Origin: Eledone cirrhosa
Lineage: Eukaryota
Length of the DNA stretch: 64,000 bases
Direction of reading: 5' to 3'
Assembly: GCA_964016885.1 (NCBI GenBank)
Contig: OZ024754.1
Location: 44,144,001 to 44,208,000 of the forward strand
Part shown: positions 7,661-62,825 of the stretch, piece by piece
How positions within the stretch are numbered: position 1 is the first letter of the stretch
Layout: each line of letters starts with the position of its first letter
The notes under the pieces: generated by a model
Told to the model about the DNA's origin: nothing
Seen by the model: the letters and a program-made list of their open reading frames with translations, nothing else
Databases searched by the model: none
Translations under genes and position numbers: made by a program

Positions 7661-9113
7661 GAATTAATAATAGTAATTAATTATTATGTATGCATCATTC
7701 AACAACAGGTATATTTGATATTTATCTCAGAGTAGTATGTATGTATGTATGTATGTATGTATGTATGTATGTATGTATGTATGTATGTATGTATGTATGT
7801 ATGTATGTAAACAGAAAGTGCTCCCCAGTTTGTAGTCTCCCCGGTCTCAGCACCAGAAACCACACACACACACACCACACACACACACACACACACACAC
7901 ACACACACACACACACACACACACACACACACACACACACACACACACACACATATAGGATAACAAATTATCGTACGGCGTTGTTTGACTCAACAAGAGG
8001 TTTCCTTAGTTAGGTGGCGAGTTCCCGAAATTCCTATGCAGGTTAATCTTGGAATAATAATAGTGAAAGAGTTATTCCGATGATTTGATGAGGCATACAT
8101 GTATTTAAGATTGAGTGACACAACTTCAAGTGATTAGCAATCTTTTGACACCCTAATCAATGAAACAATTGTTAATACTGTAAATAAAACCCTTTTTGTA
8201 CTGTTGACCATGTTATTCTTCACTCTTTCACTATATATATATATATATATATGCGTGTGTGTGTGTATGAGAGAGAGAGAGAGAGAGAGAGAGAGAGAGA
8301 GAGAGAGAGAGAGAGAGAGCGTGTATATGTGAATTAATAGACCTGTACTGGGCAGCTTTCTATGAACCAGAAAATTCCACTTTACAGATAAATTGTCTCT
8401 ATAAGCTGCAAGCGGAGAATCGCGCAATTTCATGTCTTCATCTGTTCTTCTTCAGAATACACAGCTTCATCTGTTATCTTGTGTAAACTCTATCTCTAGA
8501 TGGTGTTTCAACTGCTTCAATGATATCCGTTCATACGACTACACAGACACACATAAATACATACACACAGTAAATATATATATATATATATATATATATA
8601 TATATATATATATATATATATATATATATATATATATATATATATATATATTTATATATATATACGTGTAGAAGTAAATATATATATATATATATGTATA
8701 TATATATATATATTATATATATATATATATATATATATATATATATATATATATATATATATATATATATATATATATATATATATATATATATATATAT
8801 ATATATATAAGTGAGTGTGTATATATGTATATATATATACATGTATATATATATATATATATATATATATATATATATATATATATATATTTCGTTTCTG
8901 AATTTGTTTAGCAAGATTCTTTATCTGAAATCGTGTGTTGAAACCGATATTGTTATACTTTGGGAGGGTCATGTTGCCAATAAGAAACACACGCACCAGT
9001 TGCTTTCACTTCAATTTAATTTAATATATATTTATAAATTTATAAATTTACAAATTTATAAATTTCTGGTTGGTTGGTTGGTTCCACAACCAGATAGTTG
9101 TTTATATATATAT

Positions 9114-9158
9114 AGTCATAGTTCTTTCGTCACACACTCTGTGACCTCTTCAGTGACT
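9114..9158 (-). ncRNA. Minimal type I hammerhead ribozyme motif (family A, mirror copy)
   Basis: Reverse complement of 9268-9312. Confidence 0.8.
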
Positions 9159-9267
9159 GGGGATTTCTTTCTTCGTCTCTGTGCCTTTCCTTTCTTCTAT
9201 CCTACGCCAAACAAAATGGCGTAGGATAGAAGAAAGGAAAGGCACAGAGACGAAGAAAGAAATCCCC

Positions 9268-9312
9268 AGTCACTGAAGAGGTCACAGAGTGTGTGACGAA
9301 AGAACTATGACT
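9268..9312 (+). ncRNA. Minimal type I hammerhead ribozyme motif (family A)
   Basis: AGTCA-CTGAAGA-G-GTCAC(AGAGTGT)GTGAC-GAAA-GAAC-TA-TGACT; stems I and II pair perfectly; one extra G after A9. Confidence 0.8.
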
Positions 9313-9549
9313 ATATATATATAAACAACTATCTGGTTGTGGAACCAACCAACCAACCAGAAATTTATAAATTTGTAAATTTATAAATTTATAAATATAT
9401 ATTAAATTAAATTGAAGTGAAAGCAACTGGTGCGTGTGTTTCTTATTGGCAACATGACCCTCCCAAAGTATAACAATATATATATATATATATATATATA
9501 TATATATATATATATATATATATATATATATATATATATATATATATAT

Positions 9550-11021
9550 CTTAGTCTTAGTTTTAGTTCCTCCAGTCCCCTGTGGAACATTGGGCGACGA
9601 GCTTCCTCCACTGGCGGCCCTTCTACCACCTCTCCAGGTATTTCCCATCCCACATGTCCTCCCTGAATGTGCTCCGCCATGTTTTTCGTGGTCTTCCCCG
9701 TTCTCTCCTGCCACCTTCTGGTACCCAATTCATGGCAATATGAGCAGGTCGATCTGCCGGCAAACGAAGGATGTGGCCGGCGAACCGCCGTCTCCTTTTC
9801 CGGACAATGTCCCTTAACCTCTCCAATCCTGACCTCCTCATCACTTCCTCGTTGCTAACTTGGTCTCTCCATGAAATTTTCAATATGGTCCGAATGCAAC
9901 GACGGTGGAATACATCAAGCTTGTTACATACACTTTCCGTACTCTTCCATGTCTCACAGGCATATATCGCTGTTGGTACTACAATGGACATGTAAACACG
10001 GAATTTGACGGCGTTGCCGATGGAACACCTGGACCATACCGGACGGAGTCGCTGGAAGACCGCCGCTGCTTTTCCCAGCCTTGTGCGCACATCCACCTCA
10101 GCATCCCCATCGTCAGAGATGTTGCTGCCAAGGTATTGGAAGTGGTTTACACATTCAATGTTACGCTGACCAACCATCAATCTCATTCCTGGTGTTGCCA
10201 TCAGGGGAAGTCCATGTCATCTTGTGAATCCGCCTATGGGTGAAGAATGTATTCCCGATGGAGTGGTTGCTGATACTGCTCAGGGACAGCAACAGTTCCC
10301 CGTTGTTATTGGTGGAATCAGCTGAACTGTGGGGGCCAATGGCTGAATACATTTCTCTCCTGTCTCCATCTAGCTTGGCATTGAAGTCACCAATCACCAG
10401 CCTAATGTCTGACCTGGGTGTTTCCTCTAGGACATCTTGTAGTTGGATAAAGAAGGTATCCTTATCTTCATCTGAGGCAGCTTCAGTCGGGGCGTAGACT
10501 TGCACTACGGTCACTTTAGCTAACCTTGTGCTCAATCTGGCAGTAATAATTCATTCACTCACTGGCCTCCATCCCACAAGAGCCCGTGATACATCTCCGG
10601 TGAGGATGATACCAAATCCGTGGACATGGTGGTCATCATCACCGGAGTAGAGAATAGTCATGTCTCCGCTGTCGAGTTGTCCCCGTCCTGTCCACCTCGT
10701 CTCGCTGATGTCCATGATGTCAAGGCGATATTCTCTCATCTCTTTCAGCACCTGCTTCATCCGCCCGTCCCGAAAGAGCGTGCGGACATTCCAGGTGCCT
10801 ACTCTTGTGTTTGATTTGGCGTTGAAGATAGGACTTGACCCGGCCCCATCATAGGTGCATCCAGGGATGACGTGTCTTCTCTTTTCCGCCGCTGGGTATC
10901 AAAATAGTTTTTTCTCGTCGTTTCTGTAGCGGTGAAAAGTTTTTACGAGGATAGGGCTACTAACCCCCACGCCTCAACCCTTCTCCTTTCTCAACTGGGC
11001 TTGGGACCGGCTAAGGCGGAG
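9550..11021 (-). mobile_element. Internally deleted RTE-clade LINE inserted in (TA)n
   Basis: 5' motif GGTCCCAAGCCC..GGGTTG..GTAAAAA; APE remnants (GTWNVRT, SETRW, VYAPT, GDFNAK) with an in-frame stop at 10551; joined near 10175 to RT C-terminus (FQYLGS, YACETW, GRPRKTW); CTAAGA-type tail. Confidence 0.92.
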
Positions 11022-11306
11022 TATATATATATATATATATATATGTGTGTGTGTGTGGGTATATATATATATATATATATATATGTGTGTGTATATATAT
11101 GTATATATATAACCCTTACCCCTATTCATAGATATGGCTTTCAAAATGTTTATTTATAAACATACTGTTGTCTTTAGATATACGAAATATTTTGTTTCCA
11201 AAGAGAGTAAGAATCAACCCCAATACCGCACTGGTACTTTATTTATCGATCGCGAAAGTATGAAAGACAAAATTGTCCTCGGAAGTAATACCGAGACATG
11301 TTTTAA

Positions 11307-61651: not shown

Positions 61652-61846
61652 ATAGGAACGAGTAGGACCCCGCCGGCTGAGCTCAAGCCGTTTCGACGGC
61701 TAATTCTGGACCAGAATTAGCCGTCGAAACGGCTTGAGCTCAGCCGTCGGGGTCCTACTCGTTCCTATTACCCACTCTACTACCCTAAGTATTGAGTACT
61801 TTGGTGCGTTATGGTCAACCTGGTTCATTACCACATTTCCTTCGTT
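61652..61846. mobile_element. Family D element with palindrome 61652-61768
   Basis: Near-perfect inverted repeat centred on 61710; unfolded relative at ~45001-45132; both in (TA)n. Confidence 0.7.
61695..61756 (+). ncRNA. 3' half of a hammerhead (stem II, GAAAC, stem III, GUC site; family D)
   Basis: GACGGCTAATTCTGG-A-CCAGAATTAGCCGTC-GAAAC-GGC(TTGAGCTCA)GCC-GTC-GGGGTCCT; the 5' CTGANGA half is replaced by the inverted arm; second partial copy at about 45001-45040. Confidence 0.6.
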
Positions 61847-61898
61847 ATATATATATATAAATAATATAAGATCAAAAGATTGTTAAAAGAGTCCCATG

Positions 61899-61969
61899 TA
61901 TTTTATTATGCGCATTTCAAAAACAAATATCATCATGCAATAACATTTGCGTTTTCGTCATATAAAATA
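61899..61969 (-). ncRNA. Hammerhead motif (family C, mirror copy with C3 to A mutation)
   Basis: Inverted copy of 62076-62146 with core ATGACGA. Confidence 0.6.
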
Positions 61970-62075
61970 GGGAGACATGATATGAAGGTTAAAAAACACT
62001 TGTGAATAGTGCAGTTTTAAATCAACATATCTGCACTATTCACAAGTGTTTTTTAAACTTCATATCATGTCTCCC

Positions 62076-62146
62076 TATTTTATCTGACGAAAACGCAAAT
62101 GTCATCGCATGATAATATTTGTTTTTGAAATGCGCATAATAAAATA
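62076..62146 (+). ncRNA. Minimal type I hammerhead ribozyme motif (family C)
   Basis: TATTTTAT-CTGACGA-long stem II-GAAA-TGCGCA-TA-ATAAAATA; 8-bp stem I, palindromic TGCGCA stem III. Confidence 0.82.
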
Positions 62147-62825
62147 CATGGAACTCTTTTAACCATCTTTTGATCTTATATTATTTATAGTCCAGTCCTA
62201 CAAACTGTAGAGTGCTACTTATCTGATATCTGCATTGCTTTATTGTTCTACAATAAAACTCACCTCCTACATATATATATATATATATATATATATATAT
62301 ATATATATATATATATATATATATATATATATATATATATATAAACAATACAGCAGTCCAGTCACTTCTAAGTTTGATTAATATTAGTAACAGGACTGTT
62401 TACATATACGAAGCTATAATTATTAAAATATAAACCTTCTCACTTACTTTTCTAAAATAAACAATTATCGCCTCTTGTTTTCTTTTCATTGAAATTAGTT
62501 GAGGTGTATAAATATATATATATATATATATATATATATATATATATATATATATATATATATATATATATATATATATTTATACAGATTAGAGCAAACA
62601 TCACGGGCGCTCTATCTCGAAATTATTTTTGAAAAGGATTAGAAATGCGCAACCGGTAAAAACTGAATACTAACCAATACTTATTACTAATTTTTACTTA
62701 TTCCTAATTAAACTATTTTTCACTGGGAACAATTTGTCAGCATCTTCTTTTCTTTTTACCAATATATATATAAAATGAAAAAAAAAATAGTAAAAAATGT
62801 TTTCGCTCTCCATGGTTAAATACAA

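Follow-up and report, generated by a model that had tools for sequence, protein, structure and literature searches.

The region examined here is a window of 64,000 nt (64 kb) from Eledone cirrhosa (GenBank assembly GCA_964016885.1, contig OZ024754.1, positions 44,144,001 to 44,208,000 of the forward strand), and all coordinates below refer to it. Exons of an ALK receptor tyrosine kinase-like gene lie at 2958..27157 on the minus strand; the MAM exon has a single match, the Octopus vulgaris ALK tyrosine kinase receptor-like protein (82% over 50 aa). Scattered over the window are short repeats carrying type I hammerhead ribozyme motifs; the copies between 3 and 27 kb are intronic. The motifs are genuine and far above chance, and RNA cleavage by these hammerheads is predicted. 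The repeats are likely the 5′-truncated 3′ ends, i.e., the pseudo-long terminal repeat (pseudo-LTR) region, of Penelope-like elements (PLEs), several of them likely of the TA-targeting Hydra clade, a reading to which we assign a probability of roughly two in three. The carriers, and related insertions in which the hammerhead is incomplete or missing, are as follows.

8891..9475: family A, two-armed insertion; perfect head-to-head palindrome (8951-9475) with a one-sided tail of ~60 nt (8891-8950), both ends on (TA)n
9114..9158, minus strand: family A hammerhead; CUGAAGA, an extra G before the G10.1-C11.1 stem II, stem III AGAACU; cut predicted after 9119; lies within an ALK-like intron in sense orientation
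9268..9312, plus strand: family A hammerhead, identical inverted copy of the preceding; predicted cut after 9307
21975..22181, plus strand: family A copy that has lost the CUGAAGA core by deletion; its 3′ end is short and stands on (TA)n, the 5′ boundary is approximate
35000..35298, minus strand: family A single arm with tail; hammerhead at 35196-35238, 4-bp stem I, CUU triplet
28606..28714, plus strand: family B2; hammerhead at 28606-28671, 8-bp stem I, stem III AUAUGUAU, stem II mismatched (C.C) at its fourth position, (TA)n beginning 51 nt past the predicted cut
29630..29780, plus strand: family B1 copy, TA-flanked; hammerhead at 29674-29739, stem III AUAUAUAU
40590..40762, plus strand: family B1 copy, TA-flanked; hammerhead at 40660-40720, 83% identity to the copy at 29674
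61860..62272: family B3, two-armed insertion; head-to-head arms identical at 145/152 positions, the left being a short end on (TA)n, the right having a tail of ~85 nt followed by (TA)n
62076..62146, plus strand: family B3 hammerhead; CUGACGA, 36-nt stem II, stem III AUGCGCAU, predicted cut after 62138
61899..61969, minus strand: inverted family B3 hammerhead; C3 replaced by A, likely inactive
38647..38798: family B3, two-armed insertion without core; inverted arm beginning at most 2 nt from the predicted cut (microhomology at 62137-62139 of the B3 reference), tail on the direct arm
3775..3900, plus strand: strict hammerhead; C3 at 3780, stem II of 60 nt and mismatched (C.C) at its fourth position, weak stem III, (TA)n beginning 42 nt past the predicted cut
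7955..8231: family C insertion; hammerhead at 8073-8177 (plus strand), CCGAUGA core (U4C), 78-nt stem II, stem III ACAAUUGU; inverted tail arm at 7955-8071
56820..57185, plus strand: family C copy with tail; CCGAUGA at 56857, stem III ACAAUUGU, GUC triplet, degenerate stem I
60051..60306: family F, two-armed insertion; hammerhead-like motifs at 60149-60199 (plus strand) and 60073-60123 (minus strand), CAGAAGA core (U4A), 5-bp stem III, CUU triplet; of the two arms, only the right is tailed
2257..2420: family F insertion; arm cut off inside stem II and joined to an inverted tail arm
39068-39155: family F, tail-only copy
61655..61845: family D, two-armed, tailed, TA-flanked insertion without hammerhead core; a single arm at 45000-45130
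49130..49391: family G, tailed insertion with two arms; of the hammerhead only the 3′ half is present, resembling that of family C (GAAACAATTGTA)

A strict type I descriptor (CTGANGA, stem II, GAAA, a loop III of 2-12 nt, UH, and a stem I of at least 4 bp) applied to both strands reveals eight hammerhead sites, with C3 at 3780(+), 9273(+), 28614(+), 29684(+), 40666(+), 62084(+), 9153(-), and 35234(-). The eight are retained when loop III is narrowed to 2-8 nt and stem II to at most 60 nt. By comparison, dinucleotide shuffles in blocks of 200, 1000, and 64000 nt (300, 300, and 200 replicates) gave means of 0.013, 0.013, and 0.035 sites per window, with a maximum of one; none of the 800 shuffles reached two. 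A relaxed descriptor yields 13 sites against a shuffle mean of 0.26 and a maximum of two in 100 shuffles, the gains including 61961(-) with C3A, 8077(+) with U4C and a 78-nt stem II, and the pair 60154(+)/60118(-) with U4A and a 5-bp stem III. The core variants among these additional copies are therefore U4C, U4A, and C3A. In each case of the strict set the CUGANGA/GAAA/UH core is joined by stems I-III and stem I is open-ended, as in type I.

An earlier note on this stretch, made from the sequence alone, had described an intact CTGANGA-stem II-GAAA-stem III-UH-stem I layout at all of the strict sites except 3780(+), and this description holds, as does the expectation of an excess over shuffled sequence; 3780(+) and the family F pair are additions to its list. 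Its term “minimal” fits the layout of the hammerheads but not the size of most copies, in which stem II spans 18-78 nt. The palindromic stem III that it reported is perfect at 29684, 40666, 62084, and 8077 and nearly so at 28614, but not in family A, where AGAACT has only four of its six positions paired. The CCGG version could not be recovered: no hammerhead with such a stem III was found in the window, and the CCGG at 62653 is preceded by GAAATGCGCAA with no core upstream. The Rfam search that the note had proposed was likewise negative, since no hammerhead model appears among the best 150 of 395 matches listed, nor in focused scans of two sites. Degenerate family B patterns found no match in viral contigs and none in two metagenome scans (families A, C, and F not scanned). 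Two relaxed matches, 39139(+) and 46421(-), were set aside as probable chance occurrences. The second, at 46320-46436 on the minus strand, possesses an intact CUGAUGA core, a GUC triplet, a 3-bp stem III, and a 4-bp stem I; its stem II is poor, and there is no (TA)n end close by.

The copies can be arranged in families. Family A comprises 9153, 9273, 35234, and the core-deleted copy near 22028; family B comprises 28614, 29684, 40666, and 62084/61961; family C, 8077 and 56857; and family F, the pair 60154/60118 and the fragments at 2257-2420 and 39068-39155. A dense, multi-family population is thus present, as had been proposed, with eight strict sites plus variants in families A, B, C, and F. 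The further claim that the families are unrelated in sequence is true between the groups: A, B, C, F, and 3780 show no cross-alignment above shuffles, except for a borderline case of A with 40666 (1/200). It fails within family B, where the copies at 28614, 29684, 40666, and 62084 have common stem I strands and five of the six pairs align above all 200 shuffles. Family B is further characterized by a 6-nt palindromic loop III and by a C.C or C.U mismatch at the fourth stem II position, the latter being the only trait that 3780 has in common with it. The hammerhead at 3775..3900 is likely decayed, its active fold not being the predicted minimum-energy fold. Recurring in five otherwise divergent hammerheads (3780, 28614, 29684, 40666, and 62084), the stem II mismatch may mark a conserved tertiary-contact site. 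The CAGAAGA (U4A) motifs on both arms of family F, with their 5-bp stem III, are a candidate monomer-folding variant.

The geometry relative to (TA)n is fixed. Counting the eight strict sites plus 61961, 8077, and 56857, which represent nine independent insertions (39139 and 46421 being omitted), all 11 sites have a (TA)≥6 tract 42-229 nt beyond the predicted cut, reading downstream in the sense of the element, and in six of them the distance is 42-58 nt. Such a tract occurs within 240 nt of 20% of random unmasked positions. As the window contains 152 (TA)≥6 tracts, mere proximity is common, and the association is judged here by its constant side and distance; on that basis the earlier assertion of a (TA)n preference is upheld. 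Insertion into (TA)n is characteristic of Hydra clade PLEs and is also a trait of Neptune and Naiad, so it is not diagnostic.

The carriers are single arms or head-to-head pairs, with no tandem arrangement. Nine two-armed insertions were examined, these being 5′-truncated copies joined at the 5′ end to an inverted truncated one, and in eight of them one arm stands directly on a TA tract while the other bears a tail of ~60-110 nt; the short arm of family G ends on an imperfect TA tract. The exception is palindrome E (62818-63085), which has neither a hammerhead nor clear short and tailed ends. Arm identity is 259/259 at 8951-9475, including private small expansions, 145/152 in B3, 54/55 in D, and 76/80 in F. 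In three insertions the tailed arm ends 10-27 nt past the short end. This anatomy is congruent with that of PLEs, whose insertions are described as 5′-truncated, as adjoining an inverted truncated copy at that end, and as tailed on one side (PMC8557442, PMC8969392). In the PLE PAc, the tail corresponds to the interval between two internal reverse transcriptase (RT) start sites, and cutting and extension involve both strands of the target (PMC11167929).

Families D and B3 are different tailed palindromic insertions lying next to one another within 61655-62272 and linked by a short TA tract, as if one had inserted into the flank of the other. A sequence of 17-20 nt, present three times (61493-61509, 61543-61559, and 62346-62362) beside (TA)n/(TC)n, brackets the two; it resembles a target-site duplication, and 9 nt of it also begin the B3 tail. 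The two family D copies (61655-61845 and 45000-45130), PLE-like in anatomy, start no more than ~8 nt apart, just before a perfect GAA-loop hairpin, and are possibly a cleaved 3′ product.

Family B3 was also compared with four of 18 listed sequencing runs, among which there was no RNA run, using its right arm only (62024-62276). X1 contributed 4246 matching contigs, X16 5505 reads, X5 57 contigs, and X8 6 contigs, of which X5 and X8 are from other organisms; summed contig depth is not read as a copy number. The figures on loose ends and variants rest on the rows listed, which for variants are 40 of 72 (36 places), another 169 loose-end rows lying beyond the listing. Two 3′ ends are seen in the reads, one at 62181/62189 and one at 62272, each followed by TA repeats. 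Upstream of 62031 the B3 sequence runs on in X1, X16, and X8, with 208 such reads in X16 (median of 59 loose letters) and one such contig in X8. The joints are opposite-strand in five of five rows and occur at different places; six further rows have no stated kind, and among the rows without a given kind three join 62181 to an earlier position. No partial tandem in the manner of a direct pseudo-LTR is present in the window itself. In X16 and X8, two organisms, an identical foreign sequence precedes 62119, perhaps representing a B3 subfamily with a longer loop II.

The variants bear on the RNA fold. Among those listed at paired positions, nine of ten keep or restore the pair alone and the tenth does so with its partner, whereas only 26 of 48 possible transitions would be pairing-compatible (P ~0.02). 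Such a pattern suggests that the fold of the sense-strand RNA was under selection in the source lineage. Pairing-compatible change in the stems, a step toward the covariation asked of these elements by the earlier note, is accordingly seen for B3, the only family compared, though the phase between variants is not fixed. None of the 12 core places is among the 36 variant places listed (P 0.16), and N7 varies. A pile of 1143 X16 read ends at 62129, with a G-to-T change at 62132, was rejected as not biological: the change creates an AATT site in what is a restriction-site-associated DNA (RAD) library. We take this site to be linked to the library enzyme. The rejected change is the sole loop III change among the listed B3 variants.

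The earlier note had stated that no open reading frame (ORF) for a PLE RT or GIY-YIG endonuclease lies in the window. For fragments this is incorrect, as the following feature reveals.

19068..19385, minus strand: Hydra-clade-like PLE GIY-YIG endonuclease, C-terminal half only and broken; motif CxxC..E..N, a single stop in frame

The fragment, located by scanning all frames, carries CWLC..E...N, with the CxH degenerate at the stop, and lies between a short interspersed repeat and a mariner remnant, with no hammerhead adjoining; it lacks the regions in which the RWK and DKT motifs and the CxCX5C linker of the Hydra clade would fall. A HMMER search with it over 1.84 billion proteins (E ≤0.001) returned 2079 matches, the best at 5.5e-19. 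Among the 150 listed, 148 align back to 19068-19385, with no other credible match in the window; 131 possess CxxC..EK, 96 N.R.E....C.H, 96 a YIG-like word, and 40 a CxC(4-6)CP linker. The longest match listed (596 aa) has an upstream, RT-like YRDD word. With Pfam, neither the fragment nor any of the 16 matches scanned passed the cut-off for a GIY-YIG or RT domain (best GIY-YIG E of 0.008, in one match), and the assignment to the Hydra clade therefore rests on motifs and on comparison by eye. A word-index search with the stop-free end of the fragment found no match. In the Hydra clade, CxxC and CxH flank the conserved E and N, insertion is into (TA)n, and hammerheads are present (PMC8557442); Hydra-1_Obim, from Octopus bimaculoides, has a hammerhead near its 3′ end (PMC8557442 supplement), and the end of its endonuclease matches the window fragment by eye. 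The fragment, so far as its sequence can tell, shows the Hydra clade to be in this genome and not the parentage of any hammerhead family in the window, since no hammerhead adjoins it. Mariner transposase remnants (HTH_48, DDE_3) occur at 18663-18941 and 41316-41666, both on the minus strand, the first following the endonuclease fragment.

Folding predictions are mixed. For six of ten hammerheads (28614, 29684, 40666, and 62084 of family B and both F copies) the calculated stability of a swapped dimer exceeds that of two free monomers; for 8077 of family C the two are about equal, and for the two of family A and for 3780 the dimer is less stable. The earlier idea of a short palindromic stem III favoring dimers is thus in keeping with the predictions for the first group but not with those for the last. 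An alternative co-fold is more stable than the active dimer in all ten cases, and the single-strand folding z-score is below -2 in only two of 12. PLE hammerheads have been found to cut slowly, as dimers or with the help of protein (PMC4209133, PMC6765202, PMC11167929), and U4C is a natural variant of lower activity (PMC3088659). A natural U4A hammerhead does not appear in the main text of the latter paper and no paper on one was found in a literature search, which is weak evidence that such a variant is new to the literature.

We favor PLE 3′ ends for several reasons. The motif is far above chance, its geometry with respect to (TA)n is fixed, and the short-plus-tailed arrangement is found in eight of nine insertions; in the reads, B3 exhibits two TA-joined 3′ ends, opposite-strand joints, and continuation upstream; its stem variants maintain pairing; an endonuclease fragment is in the window; and Hydra-1_Obim is known from Octopus. 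The following course of events would account for these features. The RT/GIY-YIG protein of the element would cut both strands of a (TA)n tract, and from each DNA end reverse transcription would be primed at either of two internal positions that lie downstream of the ribozyme, as extrapolated from in vitro data on PAc (PMC11167929). Two priming sites would give one short and one tailed 3′ end, and both types are observed here. The complementary DNAs (cDNAs) would stop early and be joined head to head by microhomology, the observed counterpart being palindromes with variable junctions. The ribozyme would matter only in the RNA of the source element, two copies of which are predicted to pair via the palindromic stem III and to undergo cleavage behind the UH triplet, a reaction that is probably slow or protein-assisted. 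Those in the genome are themselves likely passive relics, the ribozyme being predicted to be buried in a long hairpin in read-through transcripts of two-armed insertions.

A number of points weigh against this. No RT or endonuclease ORF is joined to any hammerhead family in the window, and peptide and pattern searches for one were blank. The endonuclease fragment is old, its 3′ region having been replaced by the mariner remnant, and Pfam is silent on it and on the 16 relatives scanned. The modelled dimers of family A and 3780 are less stable than their monomers, the alternative co-fold wins throughout, and the predicted single-strand z-scores are weak; the invariance of the B3 core in the reads is not significant alone. 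The defined 5′ ends in the window all lie within ~80 nt of the core on its upstream side, and two family A copies that are 84% alike start only a few nt apart; a short self-contained unit would account for this equally well.

The last of these points lead to the strongest alternative, namely, that the repeats are dedicated non-autonomous PLE derivatives, each a short unit that has a promoter, a hammerhead, and RT start sites of its own and depends on a Hydra- or Neptune-type protein to copy it in trans. In a variant of this, short cDNAs would be primed in the 5′ pseudo-LTR of a full transcript and end at the transcript start site. The 5′ ends in A, B1, B3, C, and F copies do lie ~40-80 nt upstream of the core; the 5′ end of the 35000..35298 arm is within a few nt of that of the 9273 arm, so that divergent copies (9213-9225 and 35285-35298) begin at nearly the same base, at AAACAARATGGCG. 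This presumably resembles a YY1-type start motif. Non-autonomous PLEs with pseudo-LTRs are known, e.g., MRC1 (PMC8557442), and the lack of a parent ORF linked to the hammerhead families would be expected. However, B3 continues upstream in the reads of two organisms, and many arms break off within the ribozyme or beyond it on the downstream side (2257, 38647, 49261, and read joints), much as in heavy 5′ truncation. The 3′ end of family A, moreover, opens a 27-codon frame from an ATG, in which two of the three differences between two copies are synonymous, as expected if the pseudo-LTR covers the start of an ORF; a protein search with the tail peptide found no relative, which is weak evidence. 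We consider dedicated units unlikely, if deserving of serious attention. The earlier proposal that the elements are non-autonomous and mobilized in trans is thus the less likely reading, the anatomy being that of 5′-truncated PLE insertions and B3 extending upstream in the reads.

Much less probable is that these are solo monomers of non-LTR retrozymes, in which tandem hammerhead repeats elsewhere would make circular RNAs that insert as single units. Retrozymes occur in molluscs (PMC7229834), and dispersed monomers related to PLE pseudo-LTRs have been described (bioRxiv 10.64898/2026.07.22.740005). But there is no head-to-tail hammerhead repeat anywhere in the 64-kb window, and the carriers are head-to-head, tailed, and truncated, which speaks against the retrozyme affinity suggested by the earlier note; the five B3 joints of stated kind are all opposite-strand, although the six rows of unstated kind could include partial tandems. 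Fold-back DNA transposons (miniature inverted-repeat transposable elements) at TA, or inverted-repeat assembly artefacts, with chance hammerhead look-alikes could explain the long TA-flanked palindromes, the complete identity of the 8951-9475 arms, and the absence of a hammerhead among the Rfam matches listed, but are hardly credible and largely refuted by the eight motifs against a maximum of one in 800 shuffles, by single-armed copies, varying palindrome centers, and tails on one arm, and by fold-back joints in independent short reads and arms differing by 2-5% in B3, D, and F.

If they are PLE 3′ ends, the nearest published relatives are the Hydra clade PLEs, including Hydra-1_Obim (Craig et al. 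2021, PMC8557442). As in the window families, these insert into (TA)n and carry, not far from the 3′ end, a type I hammerhead whose stem III is short and palindromic, often with A or U at the cut position; their copies are inverted and 5′-truncated with one-sided tails, and their endonuclease motifs are those of 19068-19385 (PMC8557442). Short stretches in the tails of C, D, B3, F, and G resemble the published Hydra termini by eye (PMC8557442); a relaxed tail motif drawn from those termini matched in only five of 13 window tails, and this is hence a resemblance only. There are also differences. No hammerhead in the window matches the sequence published for that of Hydra-1_Obim (PMC8557442). 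Families B and C have a longer stem II (27-78 nt), the C.Y mismatch recurs in B, and the core is changed to U4C in C and to U4A in F; the tails are ~60-110 nt versus 30-40 in the Hydra clade (PMC8557442), and the window contains no full ORF.

Family A fits the minimal consensus of metazoan PLE hammerheads, with an extra nucleotide between A9 and G10.1, a G10.1-C11.1 pair, a 5-bp helix I, and a very short helix III, whereas family B, with its 6-nt palindromic loop III, lacks both the extra nucleotide and the G10.1-C11.1 pair in the copies examined (PMC4209133). Family A may derive from another TA-targeting clade. In the same paper, Cervera and de la Peña (2014) ascribed dispersed single copies and close opposite-strand pairs to truncated PLEs; one of its two supplement files contains no octopus example. 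Poseidon PAc from Anolis (Frangieh et al. 2024, PMC11167929) also has two adjacent 3′ ends downstream of its hammerhead, AT-rich targets, and extension of both strands, but unlike the window families is a full coding element in tandem copies. Non-LTR retrozymes are likewise short non-coding units with type I hammerheads, presumed to be mobilized by PLEs, yet they are defined by the head-to-tail repeats missing here and by circular RNAs (PMC7229834; bioRxiv 10.64898/2026.07.22.740005). Recently active PLE families are reported from O. vulgaris, in a paper from which the words ribozyme and hammerhead are absent (PMC13282606). PLE hammerheads as a class, massive and widespread in animal genomes, are therefore already known, and a TA-targeting, hammerhead-bearing PLE has been published from Octopus. 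No description of these particular families was found in the literature searched, which yielded PMC8557442 and a paper on twister; Repbase and Lunse et al. (2017) could hold them.

One question is whether PLE hammerheads cut in vivo, and to what end; in vitro, cleavage was found to be dispensable, and no RNA ends were seen at the site (PMC11167929). Many short copies record where reverse transcription started and stopped, and the role of the hammerhead could be addressed by counting copy ends in the assembly. For B3, with its predicted cut after 62138, an X16 joint starts an arm at 62139 (5 reads, 3 starts), an X1 joint starts one at 62136, and the inverted arm of 38647-38798 joins the B3 reference at 62137, where there is a microhomology of 3 nt; in X5, a single contig has its fold-back at the stem III palindrome. 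Three of nine copy ends thus fall within 3 nt of the cut, where 0.29 would be expected (P 0.003, post hoc and on a small sample); 62031/62034, where the B3 reference stops matching the family, is omitted from the count. Adding the six ends of unstated kind gives three of 15 within 3 nt (P 0.012) and seven of 15 in 62126-62147. In PAc, by contrast, no reads begin or end at the cleavage site (PMC11167929), whereas a few B3 5′ ends lie at or near it. The clustering is a lead, not a result, and a structural stall or switch at the stem III palindrome would produce something similar. It is conceivable, though rather doubtful, that the short copies are a fossil record of ribozyme action in vivo, in which PLE RNA self-cleaved before being copied, a large share of cDNAs end at the hammerhead cut, and each insertion is the work of two RTs that primed from either side of the (TA)n break, using the short and the long start site of a single RNA. 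If true, this would provide genome-scale evidence for in vivo cutting by PLE hammerheads, and the natural core repertoire would gain U4A and U4C long-stem variants.

With respect to the host gene, the hammerhead at 9114-9158(-) lies in sense within the intron between the exons 13464-13303 and 6548-6417, as the earlier note had supposed in stating that minus-strand intronic copies would be transcribed in the pre-mRNA. Its activity there is another matter. The sequence 8951-9475 is predicted to fold into a 259-bp hairpin on either strand, and the hammerhead would be transcribed after its own perfect antisense arm and locked in this structure; cleavage of the pre-mRNA at this point is predicted to be unlikely. 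The same would apply to read-through transcripts of any such insertion, because in a head-to-head pair the antisense arm is always transcribed first. Long perfect hairpins placed in receptor gene introns would thus silence the ribozyme, and could be substrates for double-stranded-RNA enzymes.

Other repeats accompany these elements. Long palindromes without a hammerhead are found at 62818-63085 (E), 21716-21795, and 6020-6352, the last consisting of two copies of an abundant short interspersed repeat. The short interspersed nuclear elements of the window presumably resemble those of octopus. A tandem array at 47600-48500 has a unit of ~65 nt with CTGAAGA in many units and no GAAA within 45 nt, and by the descriptor is not a hammerhead array. 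An intact ORF of 1153 aa at 49817-53278 (minus strand) with endonuclease, RT, and zf-RVT domains is likely a long interspersed nuclear element (LINE) of the L1/Tx1 type; an open frame at 53487-53897 adjoins it on the plus strand. A fragmented, internally deleted LINE at 9550-10900 (minus strand), with endonuclease and C-terminal RT pieces, adjoins the TA tract of the family A palindrome and is, we assume, RTE-like. A further LINE piece lies near 63500-63970 on the plus strand.

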